Shown: one piece after another, positions 9,362 through 61,382 of the stretch
How positions within the stretch are numbered: position 1 is the stretch's first letter
Layout of the letters: each line of letters opens with the position of its first letter
The notes under the pieces: model-generated
Seen by the model: the letters and a program-made list of their open reading frames with translations, nothing else
Database searches by the model: none
What the model was told of the DNA's origin: nothing
Program-made: the position numbers and the translations under genes
Assembly: GCA_020057115.1 (NCBI GenBank)
Contig: JAGVGJ010000010.1
Location: forward strand, 615-64,614
Direction of reading: 5' to 3'
Length of the DNA stretch: 64,000 nucleotides
From: Candidatus Omnitrophota bacterium
GTDB lineage: Bacteria > Omnitrophota > Gorgyraeia > 2-01-FULL-45-10

Positions 9362-9697
9362 ATGGCGAAGAGGATATTTTTCGTTGTCCTTATTTTGTTA
9401 TTGGTTGCGAGTTTTGCGGCTGACGCGTATTGCGATACGCCGATAAAGAAGATCGGAAGGGGTATCTGCAACATACTTACCTGCCCTCTTGAATTTGTAG
9501 CGCAGATAGGCCAGGTGAATAAATCAGACGGTCCCATGTCTGCCGTCACTTACGGCGTAGCCAAAGGCGTGGTGATGGTATTGGTAAGAGGCGTCGTCGG
9601 AGTCTACGAGACGGTGACGTTCCCGCTGCCTTTCCCGCCGGATTATAAACCGATATTGACAGATCCCGAATTCGTATTCGAGGACATGAGCTGGTAG
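9362..9697 (+). CDS. small secreted protein, paralog 1. Resembles the exosortase-system-associated small protein family (TIGR04073-like).
   Basis: Perfect SD AGGGAGG 6 nt upstream. N-terminal signal peptide. Conserved core KKIGRGICNILTCPLEF...GVAKGVVMVLVRGVVGVYETVTFPLP. Family assignment is from memory of the KLGRGxxNxxxxPxEI motif, not from a search. Confidence 0.6.
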   Translation: MAKRIFFVVLILLLVASFAADAYCDTPIKKIGRGICNILTCPLEFVAQIGQVNKSDGPMSAVTYGVAKGVVMVLVRGVVGVYETVTFPLPFPPDYKPILTDPEFVFEDMSW

Positions 9698-9707
9698 GAG
9701 GCCACAG

Positions 9708-10046
9708 ATGTTAAAGACGATCATTTCGATGCTGGTTGTTTTATCATTGGTATTAAGCTTTGCCGCTTTGGGTCATTGCGATACGGCGATACAGAAACTC
9801 GGAAGGGGAGCGAGCAATATCATGGCCTCTCCTTACGAAATATACCTGCAGAGCTCAAGGATGCATAAGACCGAAGGCCCTGTCAAGGCCATCGCCTTGG
9901 GCATGCCGCAGGGCATAGCTATGATGCTCGTAAGAGCGGTCGTAGGCGTCTATGAAGTATCGACGTTCCTCATACCTATACCTAAAGCTTACGGCCCGGT
10001 TCTCAAGGAAGAGCCGGAAGTGATACAGGATGCCCTTAAATGGTAG
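9708..10046 (+). CDS. small secreted protein, paralog 2 (tandem duplicate of 9362-9697)
   Basis: Same length and architecture as the upstream gene (QKLGRGASNIMASPYEI ... GMPQGIAMMLVRAVVGVYEVSTFLIP). Signal peptide present. Confidence 0.6.
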   Translation: MLKTIISMLVVLSLVLSFAALGHCDTAIQKLGRGASNIMASPYEIYLQSSRMHKTEGPVKAIALGMPQGIAMMLVRAVVGVYEVSTFLIPIPKAYGPVLKEEPEVIQDALKW

Positions 10047-14518: not shown

Positions 14519-14546
14519 GGTCCAGGGGCCAGGGTCAAGGGTCCAG
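14518..14546 (+). repeat. GGGTCCAGGGGCCAGGGTCAAGGGTCCAG intergenic repeat, copy 1
   Basis: 29-nt element made of GGGTCCAG/GGGCCAG/GGTCAAG units. Near-identical copies at 54694-54722 and 60889-60917 and an inverted variant at 61309-61337. Confidence 0.8.
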
Positions 14547-14564
14547 AGGTGCAAAATCAAGGCG

Positions 14565-45200: not shown

Positions 45201-48200
45201 GCCCGGGACGGAACCCGTAAAAGATAATGAAGTCATAAATATAATGCTGGACGCTTCGTCCTATATAAGGGCCTCCAGGGCCAATAGGGGCATGGATTGG
45301 ATAGCGTCAAAGGACGAACTCACTGACAGGAAAAATATGGCCGACAAGCATCCGTATATTGACATCATAGATACTTCATACAGCACGGTCGAGGAGACAG
45401 GAGCGCGCGCGCTGGGTTATATAATGGGACATATCCCTATCACAGACGGTATGGTGAGAAAAGGCGACAAGGCGTTCCGCAGGATGGTAGGCAATGTCAT
45501 TGCCGGGAATTTCGCGGAGACAGGGCTCATGGTAGCGCCTGACCTCGAGAATGTCGCGAAGATAACAGGGGCCTCATGCATGGAAGAGCTGATAGGAAGC
45601 GATAAGCCGCTCCGCGTCCTTGTCACCAATGCCGTTGTCTTGAACCAGTCCGACTTTTCTTTCGGGTTCTATTCGCATGCTCCGCCCATAATGGCAAAGA
45701 TAATCTCTTTAGTGGGCGAGGATACCTTTAATAGCACATTCCCGGAGCCGACACTTATCCTATCGGCCGAGATACTCGCCAATCCCAGTCCTCAGATCCG
45801 CCAAGAACACATCCTTCACGAGATATTCTGCCATACTAAAGGCCATTCTCCGGCTGTCTTCGAAGAGCAGAGGCTCTTCCCCGGAAATTATAGTGCCGGT
45901 ACGTTCGAAGAGCGCGGCAGTAAAAAATATATAGCAGGCTACGCCTGGAATGAGGCGATGCCTTTTGACGGCGCGTTCGGGGATGCCCTACGCCAGGTGA
46001 TCGACAAGAAGCTTGCCACGACCACGACCGGAGAATTTGCCCGGCCCAAGGGGAAGGAACATACGAAGACCAGCGCCGCCTTTATGACGGCCGATCTGAT
46101 CGCGCAGGCCGAGAAACTTAAAACGACGAGCATGCAGGAGCAGGCATGTGCTCTTATATTGAAGGCCTTGAGCATCGTCGCGGAATCAGACCAGCCTGTG
46201 CCGTACGAAAACATAGCAAATATCAGGGCTTTTATCTGGGACGAAAGATCCAGCGGGCACGTGCCGGTGAATTTCGATGTCCTGTTGCCGGTCATCGATG
46301 AATATATGAATGACTGCAACCTGACGAAATTTCGCATAAAACTGAGCGCTTTGCGCAAGCACATAGAGTCGACATATACCAATATCTTGGCGATGTATAT
46401 CTATAAACAGCTGTCTCATCTATTTTTCAATTCGCTCCCGACCATCACGAGGTTTACCATATTGATATCTTCCAGGAAATACCCGAACGATCCGTCGCTT
46501 AAAGAGATGATAGAGCTCTCAAGCGAGATGGATCGTTCCATGCGTAACCTCGGCGATGAATCGAACAGGTTAAGGAGCGTCGATTCTCTTATGAATTTTC
46601 TTACGGTATCCGATGAATCACTTTCAAGACAAAGGGCGCTCCTAGATGCGTTCAGAGCCGAGCATCCGGAGCTGCTGCGTCTCGACAGCCGCCTCAGGGG
46701 CAACATAGAAGCTATAAACGCTGAGCTCGAGAAGCTCGCGAGAGCGCGGAGCTTGCTGGCGCTTACGCTCGGTAACAAGCCTTCGCTCGAAGAGATAGCG
46801 GAGAGGGTCGATCTTGTAGTCGCCAAGATGGAGACCGGCGTTAAGACGCCGCGCATCGCATGGGTGGGCGGTCTGGTGCCATATTCCAATACTCTCTCCA
46901 CGGTGAAGGAAGGCGAGCCGGTCAAGGTAAGCATGCGTGTATATATACCGGGCTTTACTCCTCAGGAGATAGACTCAAAAACAGGTATCAAGAAATTTGC
47001 CGAAGGCTTCATAAGGGCCGAGATATGGACGAATGCCATATCTGATCCGGAGGCCAGTTCGGTGGAGGCCTTCAAACCGATAGATATGCGTTTTGACGGC
47101 GTAGGAGGGCGGGAAGGGCATGATTACATATTTACAGGCTTTATCCCTGCAAAATATGCCAGCCAGATAGACAGTAATGGCAGGCCGAAAGAATTCCGTT
47201 TTACGGCCCGAGCCGCTATAAAGAATGAGCTCGGAGGTATAGAAGGGGAATGGGCATATTCCGATAATCCGTATAAGACGAATGTCAACTGGCATGGCGA
47301 CGGAAGGATCGTCGTTCTGTCCAGGGATCCGGAAGAGGACCGCGGCAATCTGGTTGGGAGGGTCTTCAGCGATACGAACGGCAAGGATCAGGTGACTCAT
47401 AAGATATCCGGAAGGATCGAGAAGGGCTTCCTCAACAACGACTACCTCGTCCTTTACGGCGAGGATGGAAAGGTCTTATACGCTAAGGATGGCAAAGAGG
47501 CGCGTGTTAAACTTGAAAGTCCGGCCGTTAAGACAGATCTTGGCTATATTGTATACATGCTTGAGCCAAATGACCATATTCACGGTTTCGCCAGCCGCGA
47601 TAAAGTATTTATGGCAGATTTCATGTTCTATGACAGGGTCCTTTCGTATCATGAGATGAAAGAGGCATACTATAGCGTCCATCCGGATGAGGTTCCTGAA
47701 GGCATAGAACCGCACACTTATTTAAGAGGTTGCGGCAAAGGCATTAGGAACACGGCCGCTTATGCGGTACGTTACGAAAACCTTGATAAAAATTTTACCG
47801 CCGGTCAGCTTAAAACATGGATGAAAAATTCTCTGGCGCCTGAGGATAGGGGCACAGATTCCGAGATGCGGCTCATCGAACATAACGCTTCCAAGGGCAA
47901 GAAGGGCATGGAGCTTCTGTATGGTGAGCAGGACAGGGTATTCGGCCCGAAAGCCAACATGAGGGCCACGGAAAAGATATCAGGGAAGATAAAGAACAGA
48001 AATGATTATAGCCTAAGCAGGGACAAGGTCGTCCTTGTGGTAGAGTTGATGAAATTAAGGCCCGAGGCATTCCCTAACAGCATCGATGCAACCGTCAAGA
48101 TGTTGGGCGAAGGTTTTGATGTATTCAAGAAATATGATTTCCAGGGGCATACGCCTGTTGATGCGGCGCATTATCATTCGGACTACAAGAAGTGGCATGG

Positions 48201-51200
48201 AGCCTTGCTAAAGCTTATAGAATCCGATCCGTCCGTCCCGGCGCATTTTGATAGCATCTCAATGTCCTCCTTGCTTGAAGCCTTGCGCGATCAATACGGT
48301 TATATCAATGCCAAACTCAATTGGGCATGGGCTATTGAGGGCATGTGGAAAGATACGCTTGACGGTATGGAAAAGTATCCCAGAGAGAGCCAGATGGCGA
48401 GGTTCAAGGGCTTGGGCATATTTAAGCGGCACGATGATTTCATGAAGGATTATGCGGGTTCATATTATATAGAGAATGACGATGCTGTTAATAAGGCTAT
48501 GAAAGCGGTGGAAGAGACGCTAGGTTTTATAAATTCACGGGTGCCGTCGATATTTGTTAAGGACGAAAAGCCTGATGGGTCTGCTCCGGTAGCCGCCATA
48601 AAGAAGAATGCTCCACTGGGAGAACGTGCTATCAATTTTATGAAGAGCGGCAGGGCCAGCGAGATCGCCCAGTTCGTAGCGCTCGCTTTCATAATCTCTA
48701 TCGCATTATCCTGGGTTCTTCCGGCTAATTGGCTCACATTGTCTATAGCTATCATAGTTCCTATTACGCTCTTCTTCTTGTTGCCATGGACATGGAAGAC
48801 ATTGCTTGTGAATGTCGCGATAAGCGTCGTACTCTGGTATTGGCTGCCCTTGCCATGGTTCGGGCTCTCTATGGCCATTCTTACGATCGCAAACGTCGCT
48901 AAACACAACATAAAATTAAAGCCCCATCTTAAGCCTGAGGCTGTCCCTGCGGAAAGATCGGTTTTAGAGGAGAAGAAAGCCGAAAAAATATTATCCGATA
49001 TAACCATAGATAGAGAAATATTGGCCCGCATCCTGAAAGCGATAGAAGTTTCCAAAGAAGGGACCGATAAGGCCGATGCCAATGATGCGTTAAAGAAGCT
49101 CGACGATGCCGATATCATAACGCAGCTATTCGATTTCGGTTCAGGGACAAAAGGGTATGAAAAACCCGTTAAAGAAACCAAGGAGAAGCTGCGGCTCGGC
49201 GTAAGAAGGGCGTTCGATGATATCAAGGGCGGTCTCAACATAGAGTACAAGGATATGATAGAGCGCCTCAAGAACTGGAAGAATGAGAATGATGAAGCTT
49301 TAGCCGGAGCTCTCCAGGACCTGTCCCAGGAAGTCATGGATTTTATTATAAATTCGAATCATGCGGCAGACAATAAAGTCGACAGGCTTGCCGTAAGAGA
49401 GCTTATAGCCGAAGAGTGCGGGATAGATGCCGCGAGGTCAGAAACTATAAGGCTAAGGATGGCGCTGGATGTGCAGAAGGATGACGTAGCTTCAAATGAG
49501 ATGATAGGATCCGCATCAGCGAATGACCATTTCTTCCTGGCCGCTCTCCAGCTCAAATTTGGGAATTACATCAAGGCAGAGGAGAGCTTCGGACGCGCAG
49601 TAGACCTTGACCCGACCAATGCCGATTACAGGCTTGCGCTCGGGCTCGTTGAACATATATTTAGAAAATGGATGGCTGCGCGGACAGCTTATAATGCTGC
49701 TTCGAACTTCTATGATATCGAGGCCGGTGTATCGAAAGCCGCAAAGGCCAAGAAGGAACTTGCGGAATTCCTGAGGGAGAAAGCGCGCGCCGAAGCGCCT
49801 CTCATTATGGAGAAGAAAACCAACGGCAACTTGATCGGGAAACTATTCATAGACAAAGCCGCTACCGTTCAGATCAAAGAGGGCGTTATAGCCAAAGAAG
49901 AGATGGGCATCCTTAAGTTCTTCGCCCCCAATGGAGATATCCTTTATACCAAGAGCGGCGTTCCGGCGGCAGTGAAACTGACCGGCCAGATAATAAAGAC
50001 AAAGTCAGGCCACCAAATAAAGATCGTAGAGGACAATGAACATATACGCGGGTTCGCAGATAAGGATAATGCTTATCTTGCAGACTCCTTCGCAAAGAAT
50101 CCCATCGCCAAATACCATGAATTACAAGAGTCACATTACGCCGCCCACCCTGAAGAACTTCCCAAAGGCGTCAATTCCCATACCTATATAAGAGGATGCG
50201 GCAATGATGCCAGAGAAGCTTTAAGGACATCAAGAAAGAAAGATCTCCAGGATATCACCGCAGACGACCTCATCAAATACTTGAAGAAGAGGCTGCCGAA
50301 AGAAAGGCATAATGAGAATGAGTTCAACCTCATCAGATATAACGGCGAGCAAGGTAGAAAAGGGCTTGACCTTATATATGGCCTGCAGGATAGGGAATTC
50401 GGAGTAGAGGCAAATGAGCTATTCAGCGATGCGCTTATTATATTAGAGAAGCCTGAGCCTGCCGCCCAAGCTGCGCCTAAGACACAGCTAAGGACTGCTG
50501 ACGAAGTATTGTTCCGCGACTATTTTGAGGACCTGTTCGAGAAAAATATAGAAATGTTCATGCTCCTGTCGGTAAGGATGATGGGTAGCGATGCCGAAAA
50601 GAAGAGCGTTTTAAAGCGCCGGAATGCGCTCGTGCAGGAGCTTCTCGCGCTGACCGATAAATACAGGTCGCAGGATTTCGCAAAAGAGGAATACAGGAAA
50701 GTAGTCACATTTGTAAATGAAAAGATATTAAGGACTGTCGAGTTGGTAGACGGTGACAATGAACCGGCTGCTGCCTGGTGCTTGTTCGGCGCCATAAATG
50801 TGATAAGCGATACGCGCCTTGAGATGCAGGCCAAATGGCTCTCGGGAATAAAAGAACGCCGCGCCAGGATCTGGCGAAACGGCGGCATACTCACATATCC
50901 GAGAGGCGGCTATCGCATATTGGAAGGCTCGAAGCGCACTGTTATCGACCGCACGGAAGCCACGTTCAGCTCCATGTGGGAGGTTATGCGCTCGCTGTTC
51001 CATCAGGTGGACGGAGAGCTTGAAGAGAAGCGGAAAGTGTCCGGCCTGATATATGAGATAGACGGTTTCATGCTGGAGCTTTTCGACAAGAACTATGAGC
51101 TTAATGACGATGAGCGCGCCGCTATGAGCAAAAAGATCGGCCTCCTGGCAGCTTCCATGGCAAAGGAGAAAGGCGAGCTGAAGTATGAAGATAAGCGTAT

Positions 51201-54138
51201 AGCCAAACTTCTTTTGAATGCATCAGGCATGATCACGCGGCTAGGCGATCGTCACCTGAAGAGCGTCAAGGGCTTCCTTGAAATGGCGATGAGCCATCTC
51301 AGGATCAGGGAAGCGGATGCGATATCTATAGCCACTCATTGCAATAATTCCGGTCTCAACTGGGTATGGGTAGAGTCTTTAAAACGGGATTCCAGGATCA
51401 GGAACTTGGCCATTTCAGCCCTGAAGAGCATAGAAAGAAAAGACCGCAGGTCCGCGCTAGGCGCTATAAAGGGTATCACAAGATTAAATGAGATAAAGAA
51501 TGAGCCGGAATATAAGCCCATTTATAATATCCTCTGGCCTGTAGTAAAAGCCATAGAGGAAAATAAAAAGCCTCTCGAAAGCGCTATAGCCCCGCTCAAC
51601 CTCGTGTTGGAAAAATATAATAATTCGCGCCTTCTGCACAATATGCTTAGAGAATACAGGGATAAGCTTGTCGAAAAAGAGATGGCGTCGCTCGAACCTA
51701 TTGACAGGGATGCGTTCCTGAAAGATATATTTGACATGTCTGCAAAACAGAGCGACTTCCCCAAAACACCTAATCCGGTCCAGGCCCGCGCCAGATGGTG
51801 GGCAAAGCTACACCAGGCGGTGAATATACCGCTTATGATAGACGATCCTGTCAAACGCGGAGAGCGCATCCCTAATCCGGTATTTGAGGCGGCTTCGGAC
51901 TATGCGTATATCCTGGAATTCGGGAAATTGGATGAGCTGGTGAAGATGCCATTCATGCAGGCCGCTAAGCTCGGTGTGACAAGGCCGTATCTGGAGAATA
52001 TACTGAAGCGCCGGCCTTATAGCCATTTGATCCGTACGGATATGCCGAACCTTGTAGCGGCGCTATCCAAAGATTATGGCCTTGATCCTGACCAGGCAAG
52101 ACTTCTTGATGGATGTATCAGGATAGAAGAGTTTAGCGGCGCCACGCCTGCGGTTACGGCCGGGCCTCAGGTTCCTTCGATAGTTTCGCCTTTAAAGGTG
52201 CTTGATGGTATGCGGATAACAGATGAAAAGAGAGAGTCCTTCAGGCTGCGCATAGGGCGGTCGCTGAATAATAATAAATACTCGGACACCATATTCATCA
52301 CAAGAGAATCGGATGGCGAGTCGGTAGGCATGATAGAGACCATAGTGGCTGAGGATAGCAAAACCGGCTCGTGGTCGATAGAGCTTGGCCTTGCCAAGAT
52401 AAATCAAGACGTAAAAGGAACGAACTATAGGAATAGAGGCATATTCCTTAGAGTTATGAACCTCTTGGGCAAGGTCATACCCGAAGGGTCTGAGATGAGC
52501 ATAACCTCTGTCGAAGAGACCAGGACATTAAAGACCCTTGCCGGAGGAAAGAGCTGGTATCAGACCATGATGGGCAAGACATTATACAGGAGCGGCTGGA
52601 AGCTGCAGGAACTATTCATATTCGACAGGGGCAGCTCCAGTACTTATGTCTCTTTCGACAGGCTGGAGAAATGGAAAAGCGATTTTCCTGTAGATAAGGG
52701 CGGTTTTCAAAGCGCGCTCGCTCAGGCGATAAAGGATATCGACAAGACCGATGCGATAGATGATGCTACCGTAGGCGCGGTGTTATCTAAGATAGATAGG
52801 AGCGCAGTGGCTGAGGGCAAGGCCCGTATTGTGCAGCAAGCCGATAAAGGCATTCCTTCCGACAAACAACTTGTATGGATAAACATCCATGGTTTCGTTG
52901 ACCAGGCCAAAGGGCCTTTAGAGAAGAGGATACGGGAATCGATCGCAAAACAAGGTCTTATAAAGAATATACATGATGTCAGCTTGGGAGTGCTTCCCGA
53001 TGAAGTGCGTTCGCACGTGAAGAGCGTATTGGAAGACGAGGCCAAGCCTGTAAGCAATATAGTGCTATCGGGACATTTCTTTGCTACGATCTCGGAATAC
53101 CCCGGATGTATCGAGAGCGCGATACGGGGCGTCTGTGATGCGCTTGGGACCAGCGGCTATAGGATCATCCTGCCGCTCGACCTGATAGATAATAGCGATG
53201 AGACGGTCACGCCCGCCGATCTGGTATTTCTTTTGGGATTCACCCAGTTAGATAAAGAGAATAGCCTCGTATATATAGATGATGCTCCTGTGGCCAAATG
53301 GAGCGAGGCCAAGGCGGATAAAGGCGCTCCTGTCGAGGTCAGGTTATATACCACAAGTGAAAAGATGAAGGCGTATCTTGAAAAGAACGATGTCTCTGCG
53401 GGATCTTCGCGTGCGCCGGAGAGCAAAACATTGCCGGTGCCGAAAGAATCTCCCGAAATATTGTTCGCCAGATTTATGTCGAAGGCGGATATGATAAAAT
53501 ATTCCGCAGGCCAGGCGCTCGAAGGGTTTAGGCCGGGAGAATTCATAAAAGAGAAGGGCCTGATACTTTACGCCGACAGCATCCTTGAACATGGCGCTGT
53601 TGCAGAACTTGAAGATGCCTTGAAGAATACAGGGATATTTAATGAGATGAACATAGTGGTATATGGAAAGAAGCCCGGCATGGCCTGGCTCCTTGAAAAG
53701 ATAATAAGAGGGGCGAATAGCACAGTCAATGTAATAACCGTAAGCGAGGCAGATCTTATAGAAAAGTCCGGCACCAAAGAGATATACATAGATGAGACAA
53801 AGGAGCTTGATTCTATAATCAAATATGCCGGAGCCAAGGGGATAAATAACGGGAACCTCCTCGGCGTCATAAAGGGCTCTACGGCAGCCGCAAGCATAGG
53901 GAAGATAAGAGAGCTCTTAAGCGAGCGCAAGGTCCCGGTCGTCTCATTCGAATCCGCTGATGGCGTATACTCATTTGCAGCGGCCATCGGCATATTAGCA
54001 AAGTTAAAGAATAACATCGACCCGAAGATGAACAACTACTTCGCGGTACTTCCTCCGATAAAGAAGCTTTCGATAGAGTTGGACAGGACCTACCGGGAAT
54101 ACAGGGAAGCGCTCAAGAAGCTCCTCTCAAGCGCCTAA
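39244..54138 (+). CDS. giant multidomain membrane-associated signalling protein (4,964 aa). Domains: N-terminal TM, PAS, GGDEF-like, 2x [novel HExxCHxKGH domain - HATPase_c - cytidylate-kinase-like] supermodules plus a third novel-domain copy, 2x a second novel domain, an internal 3-TM cluster, TPR-like region.
   Basis: Uninterrupted 14,895-nt reading frame (apparent TTG start). A hydrophobic N-terminal anchor and two to three TM helices lie at 39880-40075. PAS spans about 40110-40500. The GGDEF-type domain spans about 40540-41010, with RAGDKGDEF at 40759-40785. Large internal repeats with about 2.2 kb periodicity lie at 41050-46000. HATPase_c N/G1/G2 boxes (ELLKNA...DYGKGM...GSGYGL and ELVKNA...DHGKGI...GTGYGL) lie at about 42150-42480 and 44350-44690. 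Cmk-like domains (CGRRGSGRST...GLRYVNSGFILRAV and SGLRGSGRTV...GLRYINPRFMMRAM) lie at about 42524-43120 and 44735-45300. Three TM helices lie at 48655-48900. Confidence 0.85.
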   Translation: MKTNRQIKKFPLFIRIIATILLVTFLVQDIAWAHPDPFTKDPSRHATLAPEPMFDHPEDKVTAISTLLQSKIESHGVFKGNVSLTAVEHILDLEDISKWCDENKIAISTEHTFTGKPTEIRLVMPHGRVLRYYDPNIKTHENKDTAARGTVVRINANLSKQAIESNDFYKKNSQVGTTSTHVDLQAAIRKEKSSAHISPFQKVHPSLYERISNYGLIAVSAGLILAYWLIDTIAYMYVFSDSDVLSALMPSDPYRYFTRAVTACMIFLFGSVIQFFVNRNKKRSIALSERNHMFFQVFMDMGVAAHRLDISGNILDVNTKWCEWMGYKREEVIDRPIFDFIDPEHRGNARDRLLGRIRGFTEVEIPQRTGDRRYIRKDGTAILSDTFHTILKDRFGRPIEILTQFRDITEQRSMEKELEKSLKELKLVSDTDKLTGAYSRNFWDRQFNAILEAFSRTKIPISAIMCDLDDFKIVNDTHGHATGDEVLKEYARVMLADRRKTDFVIRAGDKGDEFIIILFNTDAKGASIAANRILENLATDHNVLSPDGKPISIRASMGVAQFREGQTKEDLVKAADEALYIAKQSGKSKVVVTAPSSALSEGDASPESKMAFKRVVENIRTKPRKYSDITISEKFISNMAEIRNRLRKLGIEDILGDLRDLRVLTTDAVVLGHGDFSVGFYSKAEDDKNNLISVLGEDGFNKLFPRPTLVLPREMFDEYDELIQQDYILHRIICHSKGHHTSMFIQQAVYPENYNYGAYEEEAGKKYMPGCKGDPSKPFKGRTGEAIQNIINAITKDPITTVIMHDLKNKIQGGYVLDLVLNKYKKDGSALSEDLLMLKKYRDMMGSMGKTTLSFYANGANETEAITALSDMLPELKKMTTAIKLKLRYGAFDYDMEDKEKIAIVIKNSEEGVVPGINTAINMLGRSPEEIDVGRFIEDIISRAKSIFIIPENTRVDLSIPSEVRRLSGILTYKLILKLTLEELLKNASVDGQANRIKVSVSATSEGELKVMVRDYGKGMSEESLKRLFMPGNAAVEDKRYGSGYGLAVLKEAIDSVGGTIIYDNKVTDGPSFTFTLPLDAPLDKLKRRALKEPLMVAMCGRRGSGRSTVGRMIAATFGLRYVNSGFILRAVLYKLIEAKKRGSPVDLGDPKAVGAFAQDFFEKKRIDYSKEPVGIDGVDSASILVDGLSLRDKIKMLISNKEFTDGQSNEEWMHRVAGYKTVDEALENFIRTLAVETKAYGKYNGIIRMASDPVKNEDIINIMLDAPTYIRAKRSNTPIEEIEKLDSATGRKSMTGRYARVDMMIDTAHLTVRQAAIQAIRYIDARVLSKEAADGFISQGDAAFTRMAENIASGKVVDATHDPRIVLDIERLKNRLGLRSIDDLMGAGSAVRILVTNDVVINEKDFALGLYSESPAVKARLIQVMGEEKFKLAFPRPTLVLTTEVLLNKDENIRQEYIYHEAICHAKGHYEAILAQQKVFPKNYTGDCEEGANGLKYVRGFAGVKDKPFKGRLGSALTATIKMATDPIIREVLHDLNSKFSTAGGFALYSVLKRYSEEEIEADKRLKLLKEYCALTLELRNACIGYLSGEATMSDVMDIFNEHLKRFTSLTSSITERFNNNEYNDTERSKNGMKVLVEYSGVSINLMNRAMNWIGRSMDSVDVEGYLANIIGSYRASLKESATHGNKYVEINDAKISPEARRLKDIFTYKEVLRMTIEELVKNALKYSGTDSIDIEASLTKDGDLEFKVIDHGKGIPADTLKKLFTPGFTEAKDSRIGTGYGLVSLKDAIGSVGGSINVESKVGEGTTFIFTLPANGEIGALNRPKLYDPIIVAVSGLRGSGRTVVSRWIASRLGLRYINPRFMMRAMVATLLEARKNGRAIDLKDGDAVAAFAEEFFGKRRLDYSVEPVKLDGVDTSVPDEKDGLSLRDKIKTEIDDGITDGEPNTTILDNIAHYKGVQAALEKFIKSIASEVRASGKYNGVIRPGTEPVKDNEVINIMLDASSYIRASRANRGMDWIASKDELTDRKNMADKHPYIDIIDTSYSTVEETGARALGYIMGHIPITDGMVRKGDKAFRRMVGNVIAGNFAETGLMVAPDLENVAKITGASCMEELIGSDKPLRVLVTNAVVLNQSDFSFGFYSHAPPIMAKIISLVGEDTFNSTFPEPTLILSAEILANPSPQIRQEHILHEIFCHTKGHSPAVFEEQRLFPGNYSAGTFEERGSKKYIAGYAWNEAMPFDGAFGDALRQVIDKKLATTTTGEFARPKGKEHTKTSAAFMTADLIAQAEKLKTTSMQEQACALILKALSIVAESDQPVPYENIANIRAFIWDERSSGHVPVNFDVLLPVIDEYMNDCNLTKFRIKLSALRKHIESTYTNILAMYIYKQLSHLFFNSLPTITRFTILISSRKYPNDPSLKEMIELSSEMDRSMRNLGDESNRLRSVDSLMNFLTVSDESLSRQRALLDAFRAEHPELLRLDSRLRGNIEAINAELEKLARARSLLALTLGNKPSLEEIAERVDLVVAKMETGVKTPRIAWVGGLVPYSNTLSTVKEGEPVKVSMRVYIPGFTPQEIDSKTGIKKFAEGFIRAEIWTNAISDPEASSVEAFKPIDMRFDGVGGREGHDYIFTGFIPAKYASQIDSNGRPKEFRFTARAAIKNELGGIEGEWAYSDNPYKTNVNWHGDGRIVVLSRDPEEDRGNLVGRVFSDTNGKDQVTHKISGRIEKGFLNNDYLVLYGEDGKVLYAKDGKEARVKLESPAVKTDLGYIVYMLEPNDHIHGFASRDKVFMADFMFYDRVLSYHEMKEAYYSVHPDEVPEGIEPHTYLRGCGKGIRNTAAYAVRYENLDKNFTAGQLKTWMKNSLAPEDRGTDSEMRLIEHNASKGKKGMELLYGEQDRVFGPKANMRATEKISGKIKNRNDYSLSRDKVVLVVELMKLRPEAFPNSIDATVKMLGEGFDVFKKYDFQGHTPVDAAHYHSDYKKWHGALLKLIESDPSVPAHFDSISMSSLLEALRDQYGYINAKLNWAWAIEGMWKDTLDGMEKYPRESQMARFKGLGIFKRHDDFMKDYAGSYYIENDDAVNKAMKAVEETLGFINSRVPSIFVKDEKPDGSAPVAAIKKNAPLGERAINFMKSGRASEIAQFVALAFIISIALSWVLPANWLTLSIAIIVPITLFFLLPWTWKTLLVNVAISVVLWYWLPLPWFGLSMAILTIANVAKHNIKLKPHLKPEAVPAERSVLEEKKAEKILSDITIDREILARILKAIEVSKEGTDKADANDALKKLDDADIITQLFDFGSGTKGYEKPVKETKEKLRLGVRRAFDDIKGGLNIEYKDMIERLKNWKNENDEALAGALQDLSQEVMDFIINSNHAADNKVDRLAVRELIAEECGIDAARSETIRLRMALDVQKDDVASNEMIGSASANDHFFLAALQLKFGNYIKAEESFGRAVDLDPTNADYRLALGLVEHIFRKWMAARTAYNAASNFYDIEAGVSKAAKAKKELAEFLREKARAEAPLIMEKKTNGNLIGKLFIDKAATVQIKEGVIAKEEMGILKFFAPNGDILYTKSGVPAAVKLTGQIIKTKSGHQIKIVEDNEHIRGFADKDNAYLADSFAKNPIAKYHELQESHYAAHPEELPKGVNSHTYIRGCGNDAREALRTSRKKDLQDITADDLIKYLKKRLPKERHNENEFNLIRYNGEQGRKGLDLIYGLQDREFGVEANELFSDALIILEKPEPAAQAAPKTQLRTADEVLFRDYFEDLFEKNIEMFMLLSVRMMGSDAEKKSVLKRRNALVQELLALTDKYRSQDFAKEEYRKVVTFVNEKILRTVELVDGDNEPAAAWCLFGAINVISDTRLEMQAKWLSGIKERRARIWRNGGILTYPRGGYRILEGSKRTVIDRTEATFSSMWEVMRSLFHQVDGELEEKRKVSGLIYEIDGFMLELFDKNYELNDDERAAMSKKIGLLAASMAKEKGELKYEDKRIAKLLLNASGMITRLGDRHLKSVKGFLEMAMSHLRIREADAISIATHCNNSGLNWVWVESLKRDSRIRNLAISALKSIERKDRRSALGAIKGITRLNEIKNEPEYKPIYNILWPVVKAIEENKKPLESAIAPLNLVLEKYNNSRLLHNMLREYRDKLVEKEMASLEPIDRDAFLKDIFDMSAKQSDFPKTPNPVQARARWWAKLHQAVNIPLMIDDPVKRGERIPNPVFEAASDYAYILEFGKLDELVKMPFMQAAKLGVTRPYLENILKRRPYSHLIRTDMPNLVAALSKDYGLDPDQARLLDGCIRIEEFSGATPAVTAGPQVPSIVSPLKVLDGMRITDEKRESFRLRIGRSLNNNKYSDTIFITRESDGESVGMIETIVAEDSKTGSWSIELGLAKINQDVKGTNYRNRGIFLRVMNLLGKVIPEGSEMSITSVEETRTLKTLAGGKSWYQTMMGKTLYRSGWKLQELFIFDRGSSSTYVSFDRLEKWKSDFPVDKGGFQSALAQAIKDIDKTDAIDDATVGAVLSKIDRSAVAEGKARIVQQADKGIPSDKQLVWINIHGFVDQAKGPLEKRIRESIAKQGLIKNIHDVSLGVLPDEVRSHVKSVLEDEAKPVSNIVLSGHFFATISEYPGCIESAIRGVCDALGTSGYRIILPLDLIDNSDETVTPADLVFLLGFTQLDKENSLVYIDDAPVAKWSEAKADKGAPVEVRLYTTSEKMKAYLEKNDVSAGSSRAPESKTLPVPKESPEILFARFMSKADMIKYSAGQALEGFRPGEFIKEKGLILYADSILEHGAVAELEDALKNTGIFNEMNIVVYGKKPGMAWLLEKIIRGANSTVNVITVSEADLIEKSGTKEIYIDETKELDSIIKYAGAKGINNGNLLGVIKGSTAAASIGKIRELLSERKVPVVSFESADGVYSFAAAIGILAKLKNNIDPKMNNYFAVLPPIKKLSIELDRTYREYREALKKLLSSA

Positions 54139-54693: not shown

Positions 54694-54722
54694 GGGTCCA
54701 GAGGCCAGGGTCAAGGGTCCAG
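54694..54722 (+). repeat. GGGTCCAGAGGCCAGGGTCAAGGGTCCAG intergenic repeat, copy 2
   Basis: 28/29 identity to the copy at 14518-14546. Sits in the 52-bp gap between thpR and cinA. Confidence 0.8.
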
Positions 54723-54739
54723 TAAATGAATAAAATGGA

Positions 54740-55870: not shown

Positions 55871-56014
55871 ATATTCGGATTATATATCATTGTCGTCGGA
55901 GGGTCAAGGATATTGCAAAATGTAGCGGTAAGATAAAAAAAAGCTAGCTGTCTTGCTATTGTAGATGTCGAGTATTATAGGTATACTTATAATTGAAAGA
56001 AGAAAGATGTTCTT

Positions 56015-56240
56015 TGCAACTCGAATACAATCGCAAACCCGAGGAAACTCGGCGACGTCCCACCAAAAATGCTGGGACCGCGCCTACGCGAAAACGCGGG
56101 CGTGGCAAAACTACAGGGCCTAACCCTCCAGCACGGAGATAATGGCAGCCAGTTGCCGTAGTAAAAGCTTACGTTAAAGCTAAATTGAGGAGTGTATCTA
56201 TTTCCAATCGATATGACGTTGGTTGGGATTTTTTTTATTT
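56015..56240 (+). ncRNA. candidate structured RNA / cis-regulatory leader (element R1) upstream of PEP-CTERM gene 1. Paralogous to 60515-60840.
   Basis: GCAAACC followed by a CGAG-GAAA-CTCG GNRA hairpin (56043-56065). Further GAAA-capped hairpins. Conserved blocks CAAAACTACAGGGCCTAACC (56116-56135) and ATGGCAGCCAGTTGCCGT (56152-56169, identical to 60749-60766). A T9 run at 56229-56240 lies about 20 nt before the RBS/ATG of the PEP-CTERM gene. Confidence 0.35.
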
Positions 56241-56261
56241 GTAAGATCCAAAGTCCAGGAG

Positions 56262-58741
56262 ATGAATATGAAAAAACTAACCATAGCGTTAATGATCCTC
56301 GCGGCGATCGGCATATTTGGATGCCTGTCGACCGCCTATGCCGAAAATAACACATGGGATGGTTCTGAATCTAATCTATGGAGTGCCCAGGCAACTGGAG
56401 CCTGGGTCATGATCCTAACCATGCCGGCTATGGCGGTGAAGTTGCCAGCCTAACATCATCTTATTCAGATCCGGTCCTTAACATGACTACCCCCGCACTC
56501 TCCGGCCTTACTATAGATTCAACGAACCTTACGGCGTCGGCAAGCGGTTTTACGCTCAACGTAGGAAGCGCCTCTTCATCCGCCAATATGATACTTAATA
56601 ACACGGCAGACACGCAAATGAATATTGGCAGTTCGGACTCTAGTTACAACTTTACCACGAAGGTATATGGCAACCTTACCGCAAATGATGACAAGATCAC
56701 CGTGTACAGCACTATAGACTTGATCACAGCTCCAAATAGTATTGAATTCAGGAACCCCGGCGGAGCGATATTTAAAAATGTAATTATGGAATTTAATGGC
56801 GGCAATACTAGTCGCATCGTTACCATGTATAACAATACCACGATAGATGGGAATCTGACCCTGCGGAATAATTTCTCAGGGAACGGAGGCATTAGTCTTA
56901 TGGGCTACGGCTCCCCGATCGTGGCAGTTATCGGTAATTTCGACATGCCATATTCAAGCGCCAACGCTGGTTTTAACAGATTCGGAGACGGCGGGCATAA
57001 TTTAAATTTTAGGTTAGGCGGTAACCTAACCGTGGGGGAGTATTATTCCGCAGCCCCTACCACCGAGATACTATTAGATGATATCACTTTCAATGGGACT
57101 GGCAACCAGGCGGTGAATATTACGCCAAACAATAGCATCGTCGGCACAAACCAGAAATCCGTATTCATCGTTAATAAAGATAGCGGCGCTGTGGCTTATG
57201 AGACAGGCAGCTATGCTCAAAAATATCTGCCCTGGTATATTAATAAAGGAGAGCTGGCCGGCACTATTGCGTCCGGCACTATAACGTCCGGAGCTATAAC
57301 TGCATATAATCATTTTGCCGCAACAACAGACGCGGTATTTAGCGGATCGTTATCGTCCAATCCGTCAACCGTAACATTAGATCCTATTTACTCAAATATA
57401 GAAGTTGATAATCCGAGCTCTACGGGGTTCACAAGGGTCGCATCGTTGCTTGGAGCAGATTATAAAGCCCCGGGCGGTGAGCATTTTAATGATCTTACGC
57501 TAATCACAGGGGCTGTTGGTTCCGGAGCTGGAGTTGGTCATGTCGCTTTTTACGGAAACGCAAGCACTAGCGATATCGATCTTTACGTAGACGGAACATT
57601 TAAGGTAGACAGGCCTGCCGGAGCCACGAATACCCTGTATGTCGATGGGTCAGCTAATAAACCGACGCTTCAGGTCTATGACGCCGTTTTTACAGGCACA
57701 AGCGGGACTTTTTCTGTAGGATCTGCATATGGCATGGACATAAATATAAGTAATGATTTTACGTTGAGTTATGCCAATGGTTCTATTAACAACACCACTT
57801 TAAAGTTTAACGGCGCTGACGAACAATTGTTTACATATACGGCGGGCACTATTCACGCTACTTCCTCGTTGGTGGTAGACAAACCGTCAGGCACGCTTAA
57901 ATTTATGAGTGATAATAAGACGAGCAATGCCTCGCTCACGGTTTCAAGCGGCACACTCGATCCTAACGGTAATACATTTACCGTCTATCAAAAAAATATC
58001 TCTATAGGAGCTGACGGCGTGATCCAGGGTAAAGGTACTATCGGTATTACGCAAGATGTTCCAAAGTCTTATACCTTCACCAATAACGGCAAGGTCATAG
58101 CCGATGGCGGCGGGGCTGACAGCACGCTAACCATCAACACTACGGGCGCGATCAAAAACACTTTTGATAATACCGGAGATTCCGGATGGTATGCTTTGAA
58201 TAAGGGCATGCTCGCGCTGCCCGGCCAGAGCATTACTACCGGATCGAATAAGACCGTCTATTGGGGTGAAGAGGCTGATGCCGATGCATTGCCTGATATG
58301 GTCAATAGCGCCAAGCTTACCTTTAACAATGTAAGTTCGGTAGGTACTTTCAGCATCAACCTTATGGCTTCGGATAGAAGCGATATCGAGGTCTCTCTGG
58401 ATAATCAAGCCTATGCGAGTTATTGGGATGTCAATTTTACCGGCGCCTTCAATTATGTTGACATGATATTTAAATATGACGATTCTATGGTTCAATCCCT
58501 TGGTATTGAGGAATCGACGCTGAAGTTCTACCACTTTACCGGTGGGGAATGGGTCGATGTCACCACACAGCTTGATACCGAAAATAATCTCCTCTATGCG
58601 TCTAATGTTACTTCGTTCAGCGATTTCAGCGCGCAAGGTAACATTACAGCCAATGTCCCCGAGCCCGCAACGATGGTGAGCTTATTGAGCGGACTGGCGA
58701 TGATAGGTTTCAGGAGAGTGCATAGATCAGGTAAGAAATAA
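56262..58741 (+). CDS. PEP-CTERM sorting-signal surface protein 1, with an apparent frameshift between signal peptide and body
   Basis: C-terminus VPEPATMVSLLSGLAMIGFRRVHRSGKK is a PEP-CTERM motif followed by a TM helix and Arg cluster. The Ser/Thr/Asn/Gly-rich body reads in one frame from 56378. A canonical signal peptide (MNMKKLTIALMILAAIGIFGCLSTAYA, SD AGGAG upstream) is encoded 56262-56350 in a different frame that terminates at 56453. Confidence 0.6.
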
Positions 58742-58801
58742 TAGCGTTCTTTATAAAAAGTGATAAAAAATAATTAACGAGAGCTAAAAAACGAGGCGGT
58801 T

Positions 58802-60445
58802 ATGAAAGCAAAATTGATGACGAGATGTTTGATCCTTACGATTGCAATAATCGCGTCTTTCGCGTTTACTACCGGTGCTCATGCGACCGATTTCACTGGG
58901 AATAATTCCAATGTCTCGAATATAAGCGAGGGCAACTTTTATGATACCAGCACTAATCTCTATCCAAACGGTAGAGTGACTACGGGTAATTTCTACAATT
59001 CGAGCAAGAATTACGGCACTGTCACGACCGGCATCTTCAACAATACCAGCTATAATTTAGCGACCGCCTCATTTAGGGGTACCGTTGGTACTGCCACATT
59101 TAATGGCGGAGCTAGTATAGCCCTTTCCAGTTACAACTTAGGCGACGTCACCAATGGCACATTCAATGCGTACAGCCGCAATACGGCGAACGGTGCTATC
59201 AGAGGTAATGTGGGCACCGGCATATTCAATGATAATAGCTACAACGCAGCCGACGTCACGAACGGCACATTCAATGAGGATAGCAGGAATTCCGGTATCG
59301 TTACCACGGGCACATTCACCGGCTATAGTTATAATGCTAGCAGCGGTACCGTAGGTACCGCCACGTTCCATGATTGTAGCGCGAACGAAGGCACCGTTAC
59401 CGGTACTGCGAAATACATGTACGCGGATGGAGGCCTTATTACTATAGGTAATGGCATGTACTGGGGCAGCGGATCGGCAGGATCTAATGTTGATCAGGAT
59501 GATAGCGCTATTACACAGTGGGTATTCACCGGGGATGATCCTTATGCGGCGGGCTACAATGACGGCGATCTCGAAGGGGCCACATTCAATGGTTATAGCT
59601 ACCACAACATGGGCGTTGTAACTACTGCAACATTCAATGACGATAGTTATAACTGGAATGAAGTCGTAAATGCCACATTCAATGATAACAGCTTCAATGC
59701 TTATGACGAATGGGGTATCGTCACCAATGCCACATTCAATGACAATAGCTACAACGCAGTCGGCGGCGAGATTGAGAATGCCACATTCACCGGTACAAAT
59801 GTCAATGACGGCGCCATCACCGGCACCACGACGATATCGGCCGGCGCGACGCTTAGCGGTACCGGCACGCTCGGCACCTTGATACAAGGATCAGGTACGA
59901 TCTCCAGCATGGATGTTGTTATAGGAGACGGCGTTATGATGTCTCCGGGCTCTAGCCCCGGCATCTTAACAATAAGCGATGGCACGCTTACTTGGGAAGG
60001 TGGCGGAACAGTGGTGTTCCAGATATATGACACCTCATTAGAGGCCGGAACAGGATGGGACCTGATAAGATTGACAAATGGGGCTTTGCTTGATATTACA
60101 GCTACTTCAGATGATAAGTTCAACATAATATTTGAAGGTCTGTCAGGATTACCTGATACATTGGGGCAGCCATTGAACTTTAACCCCGCGCAGAACTACA
60201 GCTGGCTATTTGTAGATAGCTCTGATGGTTTAATATCAGGATTTAACTTAAATAAATTCAATATTACGTATAGAGGATTTACGGATCTGGCAGGTGGTGG
60301 TTTTACATTGGAAGAGGGGAGTATTAGGACCAAGTTCGAAATAGGGGCAAGCCCGGTCCCCGAACCGGCGACGATGGTGAGCATATTGAGCGGACTGGCG
60401 ATGATGGGTTTCAGGAGAGTGCGTAGATTGGGGAAGAAGAGATAA
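58802..60445 (+). CDS. PEP-CTERM sorting-signal surface protein 2 with about 20-aa G-x-V-T-x-G-T-F-N-x-x-S-x-N repeats
   Basis: Signal peptide MKAKLMTRCLILTIAIIASFAFTTGAHA. At least 12 tandem TFN/FN-containing repeats. C-terminus PVPEPATMVSILSGLAMMGFRRVRRLGKKR is nearly identical to that of the upstream gene. Confidence 0.8.
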   Translation: MKAKLMTRCLILTIAIIASFAFTTGAHATDFTGNNSNVSNISEGNFYDTSTNLYPNGRVTTGNFYNSSKNYGTVTTGIFNNTSYNLATASFRGTVGTATFNGGASIALSSYNLGDVTNGTFNAYSRNTANGAIRGNVGTGIFNDNSYNAADVTNGTFNEDSRNSGIVTTGTFTGYSYNASSGTVGTATFHDCSANEGTVTGTAKYMYADGGLITIGNGMYWGSGSAGSNVDQDDSAITQWVFTGDDPYAAGYNDGDLEGATFNGYSYHNMGVVTTATFNDDSYNWNEVVNATFNDNSFNAYDEWGIVTNATFNDNSYNAVGGEIENATFTGTNVNDGAITGTTTISAGATLSGTGTLGTLIQGSGTISSMDVVIGDGVMMSPGSSPGILTISDGTLTWEGGGTVVFQIYDTSLEAGTGWDLIRLTNGALLDITATSDDKFNIIFEGLSGLPDTLGQPLNFNPAQNYSWLFVDSSDGLISGFNLNKFNITYRGFTDLAGGGFTLEEGSIRTKFEIGASPVPEPATMVSILSGLAMMGFRRVRRLGKKR

Positions 60446-60480
60446 TATTTGTAAAATGCACAAAAGCAAGATTTTACCTC

Positions 60481-60508
60481 TTGCATAATTTTTTCTTCAG
60501 GGTATACT
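60481..60508 (+). promoter_or_regulatory. sigma70-like promoter candidate (TTGCAT - 16 nt - TATACT) for the R2 RNA-like element
   Basis: -35-like TTGCAT at 60481-60486 and -10-like TATACT at 60503-60508. No protein-coding ORF of at least 60 aa follows. Only a 41-codon ORF without SD lies at 60547. Confidence 0.3.
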
Positions 60509-60514
60509 TAAAAT

Positions 60515-60840
60515 TAGGAAGAGAGAAAAACTGAAATCGTTCTTTATGAAGTACTTGGCTACCCATCCGAAAGGGTGTCCGCCTAAAACGGCGGAGCGGC
60601 TAATGCAAGCGAAGATGCCGTGGACATCCCGACGAAGAAATAGTAGACGGGATGGCGAAGGCGCGAGATAGCGCAGATTCGTCGCAAAGCTATAGGGCCT
60701 AATACCGCAGGATATCCGAACCTAAGGACAAGATATCCGCCAACGGTGATGGCAGCCAGTTGCCGTTCGCGTTAACGTATAACGCGAACACGGGATTACT
60801 CCAAGCCCGCTTATGAAAACATAGGCGGGCTTTTTATTTT
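60515..60840 (+). ncRNA. candidate stand-alone structured small RNA (element R2, about 300 nt) ending in an intrinsic terminator. Paralog of R1.
   Basis: Multiple hairpins (CCGCC-TAAAA-CGGCGG, ATCCCG...CGGGAT, GCGCGAGATAGCGC, GGATATCC...GGATATCC, CGCGTTAACGTATAACGCG). Conserved blocks GTCGCAAAGCTATAGGGCCTAATACC (60681-60706) and ATGGCAGCCAGTTGCCGT (60749-60766). Both R1 and R2 begin near a shared GTTCTTT motif. Confidence 0.4.
60804..60840 (+). terminator. rho-independent terminator (GCCCGCTTATG-AAAA-CATAGGCGGGC followed by TTTTTATTTT)
   Basis: 11-bp stem with one G-U pair, a 4-nt loop and a 10-nt T-rich tail. Confidence 0.7.
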
Positions 60841-60888
60841 AAAATAGTTTGCAACAATTTGGGGGTTTTGAGCGTCTTATATAGTAGG

Positions 60889-60917
60889 GGGTCCAGGGGC
60901 CAGGGTCAAGGGTCCAG
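60889..60917 (+). repeat. GGGTCCAGGGGCCAGGGTCAAGGGTCCAG repeat, copy 3 (left flank of the four-helix-bundle gene)
   Basis: Identical to the 14518-14546 copy. 40 nt upstream of the four-helix-bundle gene start. Confidence 0.8.
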
Positions 60918-60956
60918 GGTGAATAATCCGGAATAAAACAAAAAGAAGGGGTAGAA

Positions 60957-61334
60957 ATGAGCGAAGGCTTTAAAAATTTAATAGTATGGCATAAAGCATA
61001 CGAATTAACGTTGGAAATATACAAAATGACTGCAAGATATCCAAAGCACGAACAATATGGATTGGTTTCGCAGATCAGAAGAGCGGCTATATCGGTTAAT
61101 GGCAATATCGCTGAAGGATATGAGAGGCGCCACAGAAGAGAATATATCCAATTTTTGAATATGGCGAAAGGATCCCTGGGAGAGGTGGAAGCCTATCTCT
61201 TGTTTTCGCAAGACCTAGGATATATAAGCATGGAACTCTACCGCGATGTGGACCTAAAACGAAAGGAGGTGGGTAAATTGTTAACAGGACTCCTGCGTTC
61301 ATTATGTTCTGGACCCCGGACCCTGGCCCCTTGA
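60957..61334 (+). CDS. four-helix-bundle protein of the 23S rRNA intervening-sequence protein family (TIGR02436-like, Avd-like fold)
   Basis: 125 aa. LIVWHKAYELTLEIYKMTARYPKHEQYGLVSQIRRAAISVNGNIAEGYERRHRREYIQFLNMAKGSLGEVEAYLLFSQDLGYI matches the family consensus (VWQKA..L...IY..T..FPK.E.YGL.SQ.RRAA.S...NIAEG..R.....F..FL..A.GS..E). SD GAAGGGG upstream. The last 9 codons run into the flanking repeat. Confidence 0.8.
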   Translation: MSEGFKNLIVWHKAYELTLEIYKMTARYPKHEQYGLVSQIRRAAISVNGNIAEGYERRHRREYIQFLNMAKGSLGEVEAYLLFSQDLGYISMELYRDVDLKRKEVGKLLTGLLRSLCSGPRTLAP

Positions 61335-61337
61335 CCC
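61309..61337 (-). repeat. inverted, unit-shuffled copy of the GGGTCCAG/GGGCCAG/GGTCAAG repeat (right flank of the four-helix-bundle gene)
   Basis: Plus-strand reads CTGGACCCCGGACCCTGGCCCCTTGACCC. Its reverse complement is GGGTCAAGGGGCCAGGGTCCGGGGTCCAG, built from the same units as the other copies. Confidence 0.7.
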
Positions 61338-61352
61338 TTCGTGAATTTGACT

Positions 61353-61382
61353 TTACAACAAGGAGGTGATAAATGTATAATA
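61353..61382 (+). promoter_or_regulatory. promoter candidate upstream of recA (TTACAA - 18 nt - TGtATAATA extended -10)
   Basis: TG at 61374-61375 and ATAATA at 61377-61382 (TGTATAAT overall), with a weak -35 TTACAA at 61353-61358. Lies 66 nt upstream of the recA ATG, which has a GGAGAAG SD. Confidence 0.3.

Follow-up and report, generated by a model that had tools for sequence, protein, structure and literature searches.

Two predicted c-di-GMP-I riboswitch units with junction insertions bracket a PEP-CTERM gene pair in a Candidatus Omnitrophota contig

A stretch of 64,000 nucleotides (nt) from the Candidatus Omnitrophota contig JAGVGJ010000010.1, referred to here as the window, carries a pair of PEP-CTERM genes bracketed by two non-coding elements, R1 upstream and R2 downstream. 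Our analysis of the sequence indicates that R1 and R2 are members of the known c-di-GMP-I (GEMM-I) riboswitch class with peripheral hairpin insertions, and not a new kind of RNA. We consider it very probable that both are expanded GEMM-I units of a type common in Omnitrophota, R1 being the leader of the PEP-CTERM genes and R2 likely a stand-alone RNA that binds cyclic di-GMP (c-di-GMP). Class homology, architecture, conservation and the terminators, which were observed directly, carry this reading. What is non-standard here is an insertion of two to four hairpins in the aptamer junction, recurrent in at least four Omnitrophota loci, together with a C at position 20 of R1 and the conservation of an R2 without a gene.

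R1 and R2 share the core of the c-di-GMP-I class

A first-pass annotation of the window had described R1 and R2 as a paralogous pair sharing a perfect 18-mer within a common order of blocks. Direct reading found the 18-mer, ATGGCAGCCAGTTGCCGT, as an exact pair at 56142-56159 and 60749-60766, with no third copy in the window even when up to three mismatches were allowed, and none of 100 shuffled sequences held two matches. The order of blocks was likewise seen in both elements: CAAAACTACAGGGCCTAA in R1 or CAAAGCTATAGGGCCTAA in R2, then a variable hairpin, the 18-mer, and a hairpin with an ACGT loop. Against shuffled sequence, the folds of both elements were the more stable, with z at -5.1 in R2 and -2.6 in R1. 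The shared blocks are real, but they do not mark a private pair of paralogues, as the same core is present in 83 loci from three phyla. These loci, with AGGGCCTAA...ATGGCAGCCNNNTGCCG, came from a scan of 185,579 species genomes with the pattern AGGGCCTAAN{16,46}ATGGCAGCCNNNTGCCG and belong to Clostridia, Planctomycetota and Omnitrophota; the core that they share can be written as AGGGCCTAA...ATGGCAGCC...TGCCG, and 59 of the 83 have an identical ATGGCAGCCAGTTGCCG. Given this distribution, we read the blocks as family-level conservation and the 18-mer as the most conserved stretch of the GEMM-I core. A metagenome scan for close relatives with the pattern AGGGCCTAAN{16,46}ATGGCAGCCAGTTGCCGT returned just two unrelated Firmicute-type loci.

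The same annotation had suspected a c-di-GMP-I riboswitch and had proposed an Rfam cmscan as a check. At the gathering threshold, Rfam reported a single tRNA in the window, and neither R1 nor R2 was in its list. In E-value mode RF01051 (c-di-GMP-I, GEMM-I) was the top match for both elements over model positions 1-87, covering 60644-60767 in R2 (34.1 bits, E = 5e-4) and 56022-56160 in R1 (28.8 bits, E = 0.01), and no competing family came close for either. The suspicion was thus borne out, yet both scores lie under the RF01051 gathering cut-off of 35 bits, which is an operational threshold and not a structural feature. The pieces that had been singled out (GCAAACC with a GAAA hairpin, CGCAAAGC, and a CCUAA...AUGG receptor) proved to be true core features.

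The low scores can be explained by the hairpins, two in R1 and four in R2, that separate the GAAA hairpin from the GCAAA junction; these insertions, of 48-104 nt, are left unaligned outside the model. The window itself falls within Omnitrophota by its RecA homologues. Canonical riboswitches of this phylum with an identical AGGGCCTAA...ATGGCAGCCAGTTGCCG score 70-80 bits (L028, L065, L021, L004, L023 and L018); relatives in which the same core carries insertions lose 30-40 bits and reach about 40 (42.4 for L025 and 40.6 for L006).

The core of 31 canonical sequences was aligned with R1, R2, L025 and L088, the inserts having been cut out by hand beforehand. L088 is a metagenome contig whose RecA is 92% identical to that of the window, and it holds the only R2 orthologue compared. 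Across the 17 pairs of this alignment 97.3% of cells pair, and both partners change in 9 of the 17; no shuffle attained these pairing and covariation values, and slid controls paired in 19-44% of cells. With the inserts excised in this way, 16 of the 17 core pairs stay intact in R1 and likewise in R2, across the GC/GC mini-helix, the P2 hairpin and the stem of AGCU..GG..GCC with GGC..CC..AGUU; only the outermost pair of P2 is missed. Both also keep the GAAA loop, the CCUAA/AUGG receptor, A47 and C92 (the CC in the GCCG tail). Every proposed helix, the inserted hairpins among them, is made of standard pairs; the proposed folds lie above the minimum free energy by 4.6 kcal/mol (R1) and 12 kcal/mol (R2), with tertiary and ligand energy not counted.

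A common plan emerges for R1, R2, L088 and L025. From the 5' end it consists of G or C at position 20, GC, a 3-nt junction (AAA, but UAC in R2 and UAA in L088), P2 with its GAAA loop, and the inserted hairpins. These are followed by GC-AAA, the stem with the CCUAA receptor, P3, and the AUGGCAGCC-AGUUGCCG 3' core.

A second type of expansion was seen in six other loci (L006, L009, L033, L052, L057 and L071), where two hairpins lie within the 5' strand of P2. In each case a conserved type IV pilin-like gene (GFTLVEIMIVVAIIVLLAAIAIPNLLRARL) follows at a distance of about 210-280 nt. One of them, L057, scored best against the GGC-variant model (39.8 bits), under the cut-off of that model.

Anatomy of the two units

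The features of both units are collected in Table 1. The promoter-like site ahead of R1 was not called by a consensus scan, because its -35 element is weak. Among the Omnitrophota GEMM-I loci that we read, a TATACT-like -10 box lies 30-110 nt ahead of the aptamer (TATAAT in L028 and TATAGT in L025). The post-aptamer hairpin, H1, with a loop of the CGUUAA type, also follows the aptamer in R2, L028 and L065. The anatomy of R1, with a terminator ahead of the PEP-CTERM pair, agrees with its first description as leader- or attenuator-like; of the T9 run said to end it 20 nt before the ribosome-binding site, the distance stands, and the run was counted as 8 T.

The two PEP-CTERM genes probably form one operon, since gene 2 starts 60 nt after gene 1. 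In gene 1 the signal-peptide open reading frame (ORF) and the main ORF lie in different frames; with one C more in the GCCC at about 56385-56388 they would fuse (WSAPGNWSLG). A genuine frameshift, phase variation and a misassembled C run are all possible causes of this break.

For R2, the 5' half chosen by Rfam (UGGCGAAG, at about 60655) was rejected, as in L088 Rfam takes another, non-homologous 5' half with P2 deleted. GGCUAMC and the GAAA hairpin upstream are conserved in R2, L088, R1 and L025, and we place the true 5' half at 60557-60578, since L088 and R1 conserve no other candidate. The idea that R2 codes for a peptide was also set aside, the 41-codon ORF at 60546-60671 being broken in L088; no conserved ORF was found within R1 or R2. 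The earlier view of R2 as having its own promoter-like site and terminator, and no ORF, agrees with this anatomy and with the L088 orthologue, where the counterpart of the promoter reads TTGAAA-16 nt-TATACT.

Table 1. Features of R1, R2 and the PEP-CTERM gene pair, in positions of the window
Feature	Position	Strand	Basis or remarks
R1 promoter-like site, TTGTAG-17 nt-TATACT	55959-55987 (-10 at 55982-55987)	+	read from sequence
R1 aptamer, c-di-GMP-I type	56032-56158	+	RF01051 28.8 bits; standard pairs; 16/17 core pairs
R1 position-20 equivalent (C)	56032	+	
R1 P1a	56033-34 with 56105-06	+	
R1 P2	56039-56052	+	GAAA loop 56044-47
R1 insertion, two hairpins	56057-56104	+	GAC linker to P1a 3' strand
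R1 HPc	56057-56078	+	homologues in R2, L088 pair despite both-sided changes
R1 HPd, two-tiered	56079-56104	+	homologues in R2, L088 pair despite both-sided changes
R1 A47 equivalent	56107	+	
R1 stem	56109-56120 with 56144-56154	+	
R1 CCUAA receptor half	56119-56123	+	predicted docking of GAAA 56044-47 with CCUAA 56119-23 and AAUGG 56141-45
R1 P3	56126-56138	+	
R1 GCCG tail	56155-58	+	
R1 post-aptamer hairpin H1	56166-56181	+	AGCUU/AAGCU, loop ACGUUA; fold
R1 intrinsic-terminator-like hairpin	56202-56228	+	11 pairs, G-U rich; 8 T at 56229-56236
PEP-CTERM gene 1	56268-58741	+	PEP-CTERM domain by Pfam, NCBIfam; ribosome-binding site AGGAG 56257-56261
PEP-CTERM-1 signal-peptide ORF	56268-56453	+	frame differs from main ORF
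PEP-CTERM-1 main ORF	56378-58741	+	frame differs from signal-peptide ORF
PEP-CTERM gene 2	58802-60445	+	PEP-CTERM domain (Pfam, NCBIfam); homologues are PATR/autotransporter-associated beta-strand repeat proteins
R2 promoter-like site, TTGCAT-16 nt-TATACT	60481-60508	+	read; -10 and surroundings kept in L088
R2 aptamer, expanded c-di-GMP-I type	60557-60765	+	RF01051 34.1 bits (60644-60767); standard pairs; 16/17 core pairs
R2 G20 equivalent	60557	+	
R2 P1a	60558-59 with 60684-85	+	
R2 P2	60564-60577	+	GAAA loop 60569-72
R2 insertion, four hairpins	60579-60682	+	HPa 60579-94, HPb 60596-60621, HPc 60625-54, HPd 60655-82
R2 A47 equivalent	60686	+	
R2 stem	60688-60699 with 60751-60761	+	
R2 receptor motif	60698-60702	+	predicted docking of GAAA 60569-72 with CCUAA 60698-60702 and GAUGG 60748-52
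R2 P3, long	60704-60747	+	
R2 GCCG tail	60762-65	+	
R2 post-aptamer hairpin H1	60765-60789	+	10 pairs, loop ACGUA; kept in L088
R2 intrinsic terminator	60803-60842	+	hairpin 60803-60832, 13 pairs (7 G-C), plus TTTTTATTTT

R2 is conserved in a sister lineage

The -10 box, GGCUAMC, the GAAA-capped hairpin, HPc, HPd, the core, H1 and the terminator are all conserved between R2 and L088. Identity was 90% in the junction core, 100% in the 3' core and 92% in H1, the linker and the terminator, falling to 55% in the 5' leader, 61% in the distal part of P3 and 37% in the insert. Between the same two sequences the recA genes are 84.8% identical, and their third codon positions 61.5%. HPa and HPb are missing from L088 (a 39-nt indel), and HPc and HPd are retained with compensatory changes; their pairing survives double changes among R1, R2 and L088, for example A-U/A-U in R2 versus U-G/C-G in L088. 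Because core and platform are 90-100% identical against 61.5% at recA third codon positions, R2 is under purifying selection as an RNA.

A tie between R2 and the PEP-CTERM genes had been suggested, and the relatives argue against this. In L088 recA lies directly 3' of the R2 orthologue, and no PEP-CTERM gene was found in the 270 nt upstream of it. The cinA-recA interval of the closest relative (RecA 94% identical, known from its gene table only) has no PEP-CTERM pair; it contains a 370-nt gap and a gene for a Y1 transposase. R2 is also absent from L089 and L092 (RecA about 88% identical), which keep the block that follows its terminator, so that a deeply conserved element upstream of recA was rejected as a description of R2. 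In L025, the other junction-insertion locus, the promoter-aptamer-terminator unit faces a convergent gene.

The block 3' of the R2 terminator consists of TTTGCAAC(A)AT..., about 20 nt, and then GCGTCTTATATAGTAG. It was located at 60843-60889 in the window, 560-606 in L088, 150-195 in L089 and 9140-9185 in L092, always before the gene that precedes recA, including in the relatives without R2, and it may be a promoter or operator.

In the window, R2 is followed by a gene for a four-helix-bundle protein (23S rRNA intervening sequence, IVS, protein; 60957-61334) and then by recA. Insertions recur in this lineage just before recA, a hot spot that holds the IVS gene in the window and a Y1_Tnp gene in two relatives. 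In L092 the Y1 transposase (RAYT-like) gene lies between ligT and recA, with repeats that resemble repetitive extragenic palindromes (AACCTCGCAGGTTGCACCTCGCAGGTTATG) and duplicated ligT 3' ends around it (8700-9900). Just 5' of the R2 orthologue, L088 (1-180) has GGGACAG-type repeats enclosed by an inverted repeat of 16 nt, GGGACGTTTTCAAAAT / ATTTTGAAAACGTCCC, an arrangement that looks like a miniature inverted-repeat transposable element or a structured element. A repeat with a 7-nt period (GGTCCAG GGGCCAG GGTCAAG GGTCCAG) gave 13 pattern matches in the window versus 1.15 expected, with copies at 14519-14548(+), 54695-54724(+), 60890-60919(+) and 61307-61336(-). The last two are inverted and bracket the IVS gene, like the ends of a small mobile cassette, and L089 has a similar CCAGG-rich run 5' of its IVS gene.

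Proposed working of R1 and R2, and the alternatives

Each unit would run from a TATACT-type promoter through the aptamer, the short hairpin H1 and a linker to an intrinsic terminator. What is said below on binding of a ligand, on which way the units switch and on what R2 does is prediction from this architecture. R1 would be transcribed from TTGTAG-17-TATACT as the 5' leader of the two-gene PEP-CTERM operon, and c-di-GMP bound to its aptamer would shift the fraction of transcripts that pass the weak, G-U-rich terminator at 56202-56236. By analogy with GEMM-I switches that control adhesins, our low-confidence guess is that R1 may be ON at high c-di-GMP. R2 would be transcribed from TTGCAT-16-TATACT and end at its strong terminator as a gene-less RNA of about 325 nt, which may sponge c-di-GMP or work in trans, in line with proposals for merRNA; gating of read-through into the downstream genes is less likely. 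We favor a stand-alone c-di-GMP-binding RNA as the most likely identity of R2 because it is gene-less, has a strong terminator and is under purifying selection in the sister lineage.

The organism is predicted to make c-di-GMP, as PAS and GGDEF domains are encoded in the window 2 kb upstream of R1 (at about residues 300-590 of a 4964-aa giant ORF, 39244-54138, of a type typical of Omnitrophota). The alternation of riboswitch and gene was also seen in L018, where two canonical GEMM-I elements on the - strand (1366-1461 and 3281-3374) lie 1.9 kb apart with a pilin-like gene between them, the same layout of riboswitch, gene and riboswitch as in the window. In the comparison of PEP-CTERM-2 homologues, L086 had no riboswitch and a phage context proved irrelevant.

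Several observations weigh against this reading. Both Rfam scores are under the gathering cut-off, and the junction-insertion comparison set consists of the one R2 orthologue (L088) and one further example (L025). No convincing anti-terminator was found for R1 or R2 in truncated folds and duplex energies, and thermodynamic folds formed the terminator with or without the aptamer in every context tried. The best R1 alternative, between the 3' strand of the aptamer and the 3' arm of the terminator, is wobble-rich and reaches -8.6 kcal/mol versus -11.0 kcal/mol for the terminator. Other candidates were weak, being wobble-rich or inside the R2-specific insert that is missing from L088, and the linker CGGGAU was rejected as an alternative partner for the 5' arm of HPc, a 6-mer match at chance level. 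Finally, R1 has a C at the site of G20, so that its ligand or affinity may differ or R1 may be decaying, and the PEP-CTERM-1 gene behind it is frameshifted.

The main rival for R2, unlikely in our judgment though to be taken seriously, is that it acts in cis and gates read-through into the four-helix-bundle gene and recA, or into recA directly in L088. This would suit the position of recA, downstream and on the same strand in both genomes, and the conserved platform of H1, linker and terminator, a type shared with L028 and L065, in which about 25 nt separate the terminator from the start of a gene. It fits less well with the strength of the terminator, for which a search revealed no competing pairing, and with a near-consensus promoter-like site that recA has of its own downstream of R2 (61352-61381, 11 of 12 matches). 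In addition, the space between R2 and recA takes unrelated inserts (the four-helix-bundle gene in the window and the Y1 transposase in relatives, with R2 absent in L092), and both L089 and L092 keep the post-terminator block without R2.

For R1, the alternative is a variant in specificity or affinity, or a decaying copy, in which C20 would alter the ligand, retune the threshold or mark a lost function. Position 20 was G in 56 and A in 13 of the 69 canonical loci and C in none, and it is G in R2, L088 and L025; positions 20, 47 and 92 read C-A-C in R1 and G-A-C in R2. Many position-20 mutants reportedly retain a biologically useful affinity for c-di-GMP. The remainder of R1 is intact, from the core pairs, GAAA loop and receptor to A47, C92 and the terminator, and the frameshift behind it, which would fit decay, may be an assembly error in the C run. 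Position 20 is nevertheless a specificity determinant, the G20A change making Vc2 bind both c-di-GMP and cyclic GMP-AMP (cGAMP) (PMC6140456). On balance we regard a variant or decaying R1 as a doubtful alternative to a working c-di-GMP leader.

The A20 loci were found in Christensenellaceae/Oscillospiraceae (L007, L010, L015, L030, L034, L062, L063, L067, L069, L074 and others). Ten of the 13 also had GC-ACA and a GUC-GC linker (once GCC-GC and once UCC-GC), and A20 with GC-ACA and GUC-GC is a signature linked with the cGAMP-sensing GEMM-Ib.

A more speculative extension, which we put forward tentatively, is that the junction-insertion GEMM-I RNAs (R2, L088 and L025) may form a family specific to the Omnitrophota lineage, made up of stand-alone small RNAs (sRNAs) that bind c-di-GMP and serve as second-messenger buffers or trans regulators; the added hairpins would supply the extra function, and C20 may have retuned the cis-acting R1 to another threshold or another cyclic dinucleotide.

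It is improbable that R2 is a remnant with no function today, whether it once led a third PEP-CTERM or pilin gene that has been lost or arose when riboswitch copies recombined: the 90-100% conservation of its core and platform against about 61% at neutral sites, and the compensatory changes in HPd, speak for a maintained RNA. In favor of a remnant are the lack of a cognate gene for R2, known arrays of alternating riboswitches and genes (L018; Methylophaga, PMC12530212) and the absence of the PEP-CTERM pair from the closest relative. A divergent riboswitch class or undescribed RNA family specific to PEP-CTERM/exosortase cargo, as first suggested, is very hard to sustain despite the sub-threshold scores and the 48-104 nt outside the model, as the RF01051 alignment is full-length for both elements, their core is identical to that of 70-80-bit canonical members in the same phylum with core pairs, tetraloop and receptor, A47 and C92 all present, the R2 orthologue does not adjoin a PEP-CTERM gene, and pilin-like, PilZ-like and sigma-factor genes lie behind other GEMM-I units of Omnitrophota and Planctomycetota.

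Comparison with known systems

Taken as expanded c-di-GMP-I units, R1 and R2 suggest that the Rfam cut-off misses such riboswitches in uncultured Omnitrophota, where c-di-GMP regulons would thus be under-annotated. The Omnitrophota regulon would gain a PEP-CTERM surface-protein gene pair under predicted riboswitch control. Two oddities stand out, a conserved gene-less riboswitch unit comparable to merRNA and, at the ligand-contacting position 20, a naturally occurring C. What is known of how the riboswitch class works is unchanged by either.

Both elements resemble the c-di-GMP-I class, with Vc2 of Vibrio cholerae as its type example, in the GC/GC mini-helix, the AAA junction, P2 with its GAAA loop, CCUAA...AUGG in P3, A47 and C92. 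They share with it the AGCC...UGCCG 3' core and a predicted intrinsic-terminator platform, and R1 also has surface-protein genes downstream. They differ from it in the additional two to four hairpins (48-104 nt) that separate P2 from the 3' strand of GC/GC, in the long P3 of R2, in the C that replaces G20 in R1, and in scores just under the cut-off. The described GEMM-I variants are set by positions 20, 47 and 92: GEMM-Ib (cGAMP, A20), RF03167 (GGC) and RF03168 (UAU). The C-A-C of R1 and the G-A-C of R2 match none of these.

A parallel to the PEP-CTERM setting of R1 is a gene cluster of Methylophaga nitratireducenticrescens GP59 with several c-di-GMP riboswitches, each beside a PEP-CTERM/VPLPA-CTERM gene (PMC12530212), so that the link between these riboswitches and PEP-CTERM genes, earlier taken as new, was already in the literature. 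That host is a gammaproteobacterium, and its riboswitches are annotated as standard, with no expanded aptamers reported (PMC12530212).

R2 and L025 resemble merRNA of Bdellovibrio bacteriovorus, a separate non-coding RNA, a few hundred nt long, that contains a c-di-GMP riboswitch and is followed by no conserved ORF, and for which a role in c-di-GMP sponging or storage has been proposed (PMC3627812). merRNA was defined by its massive measured expression, whereas R2 is known from sequence, in a different phylum, and the likeness in sequence ends with the aptamer. A further parallel is the Vc2 riboswitch at the 3' end of upstream sRNAs, which it stabilizes (bioRxiv 10.1101/617340). Unlike R2, Vc2 has a cognate downstream gene, tfoY, and the ends of its sRNAs do not arise from termination; the likeness lies in a possible control of RNA stability, and not of an ORF.

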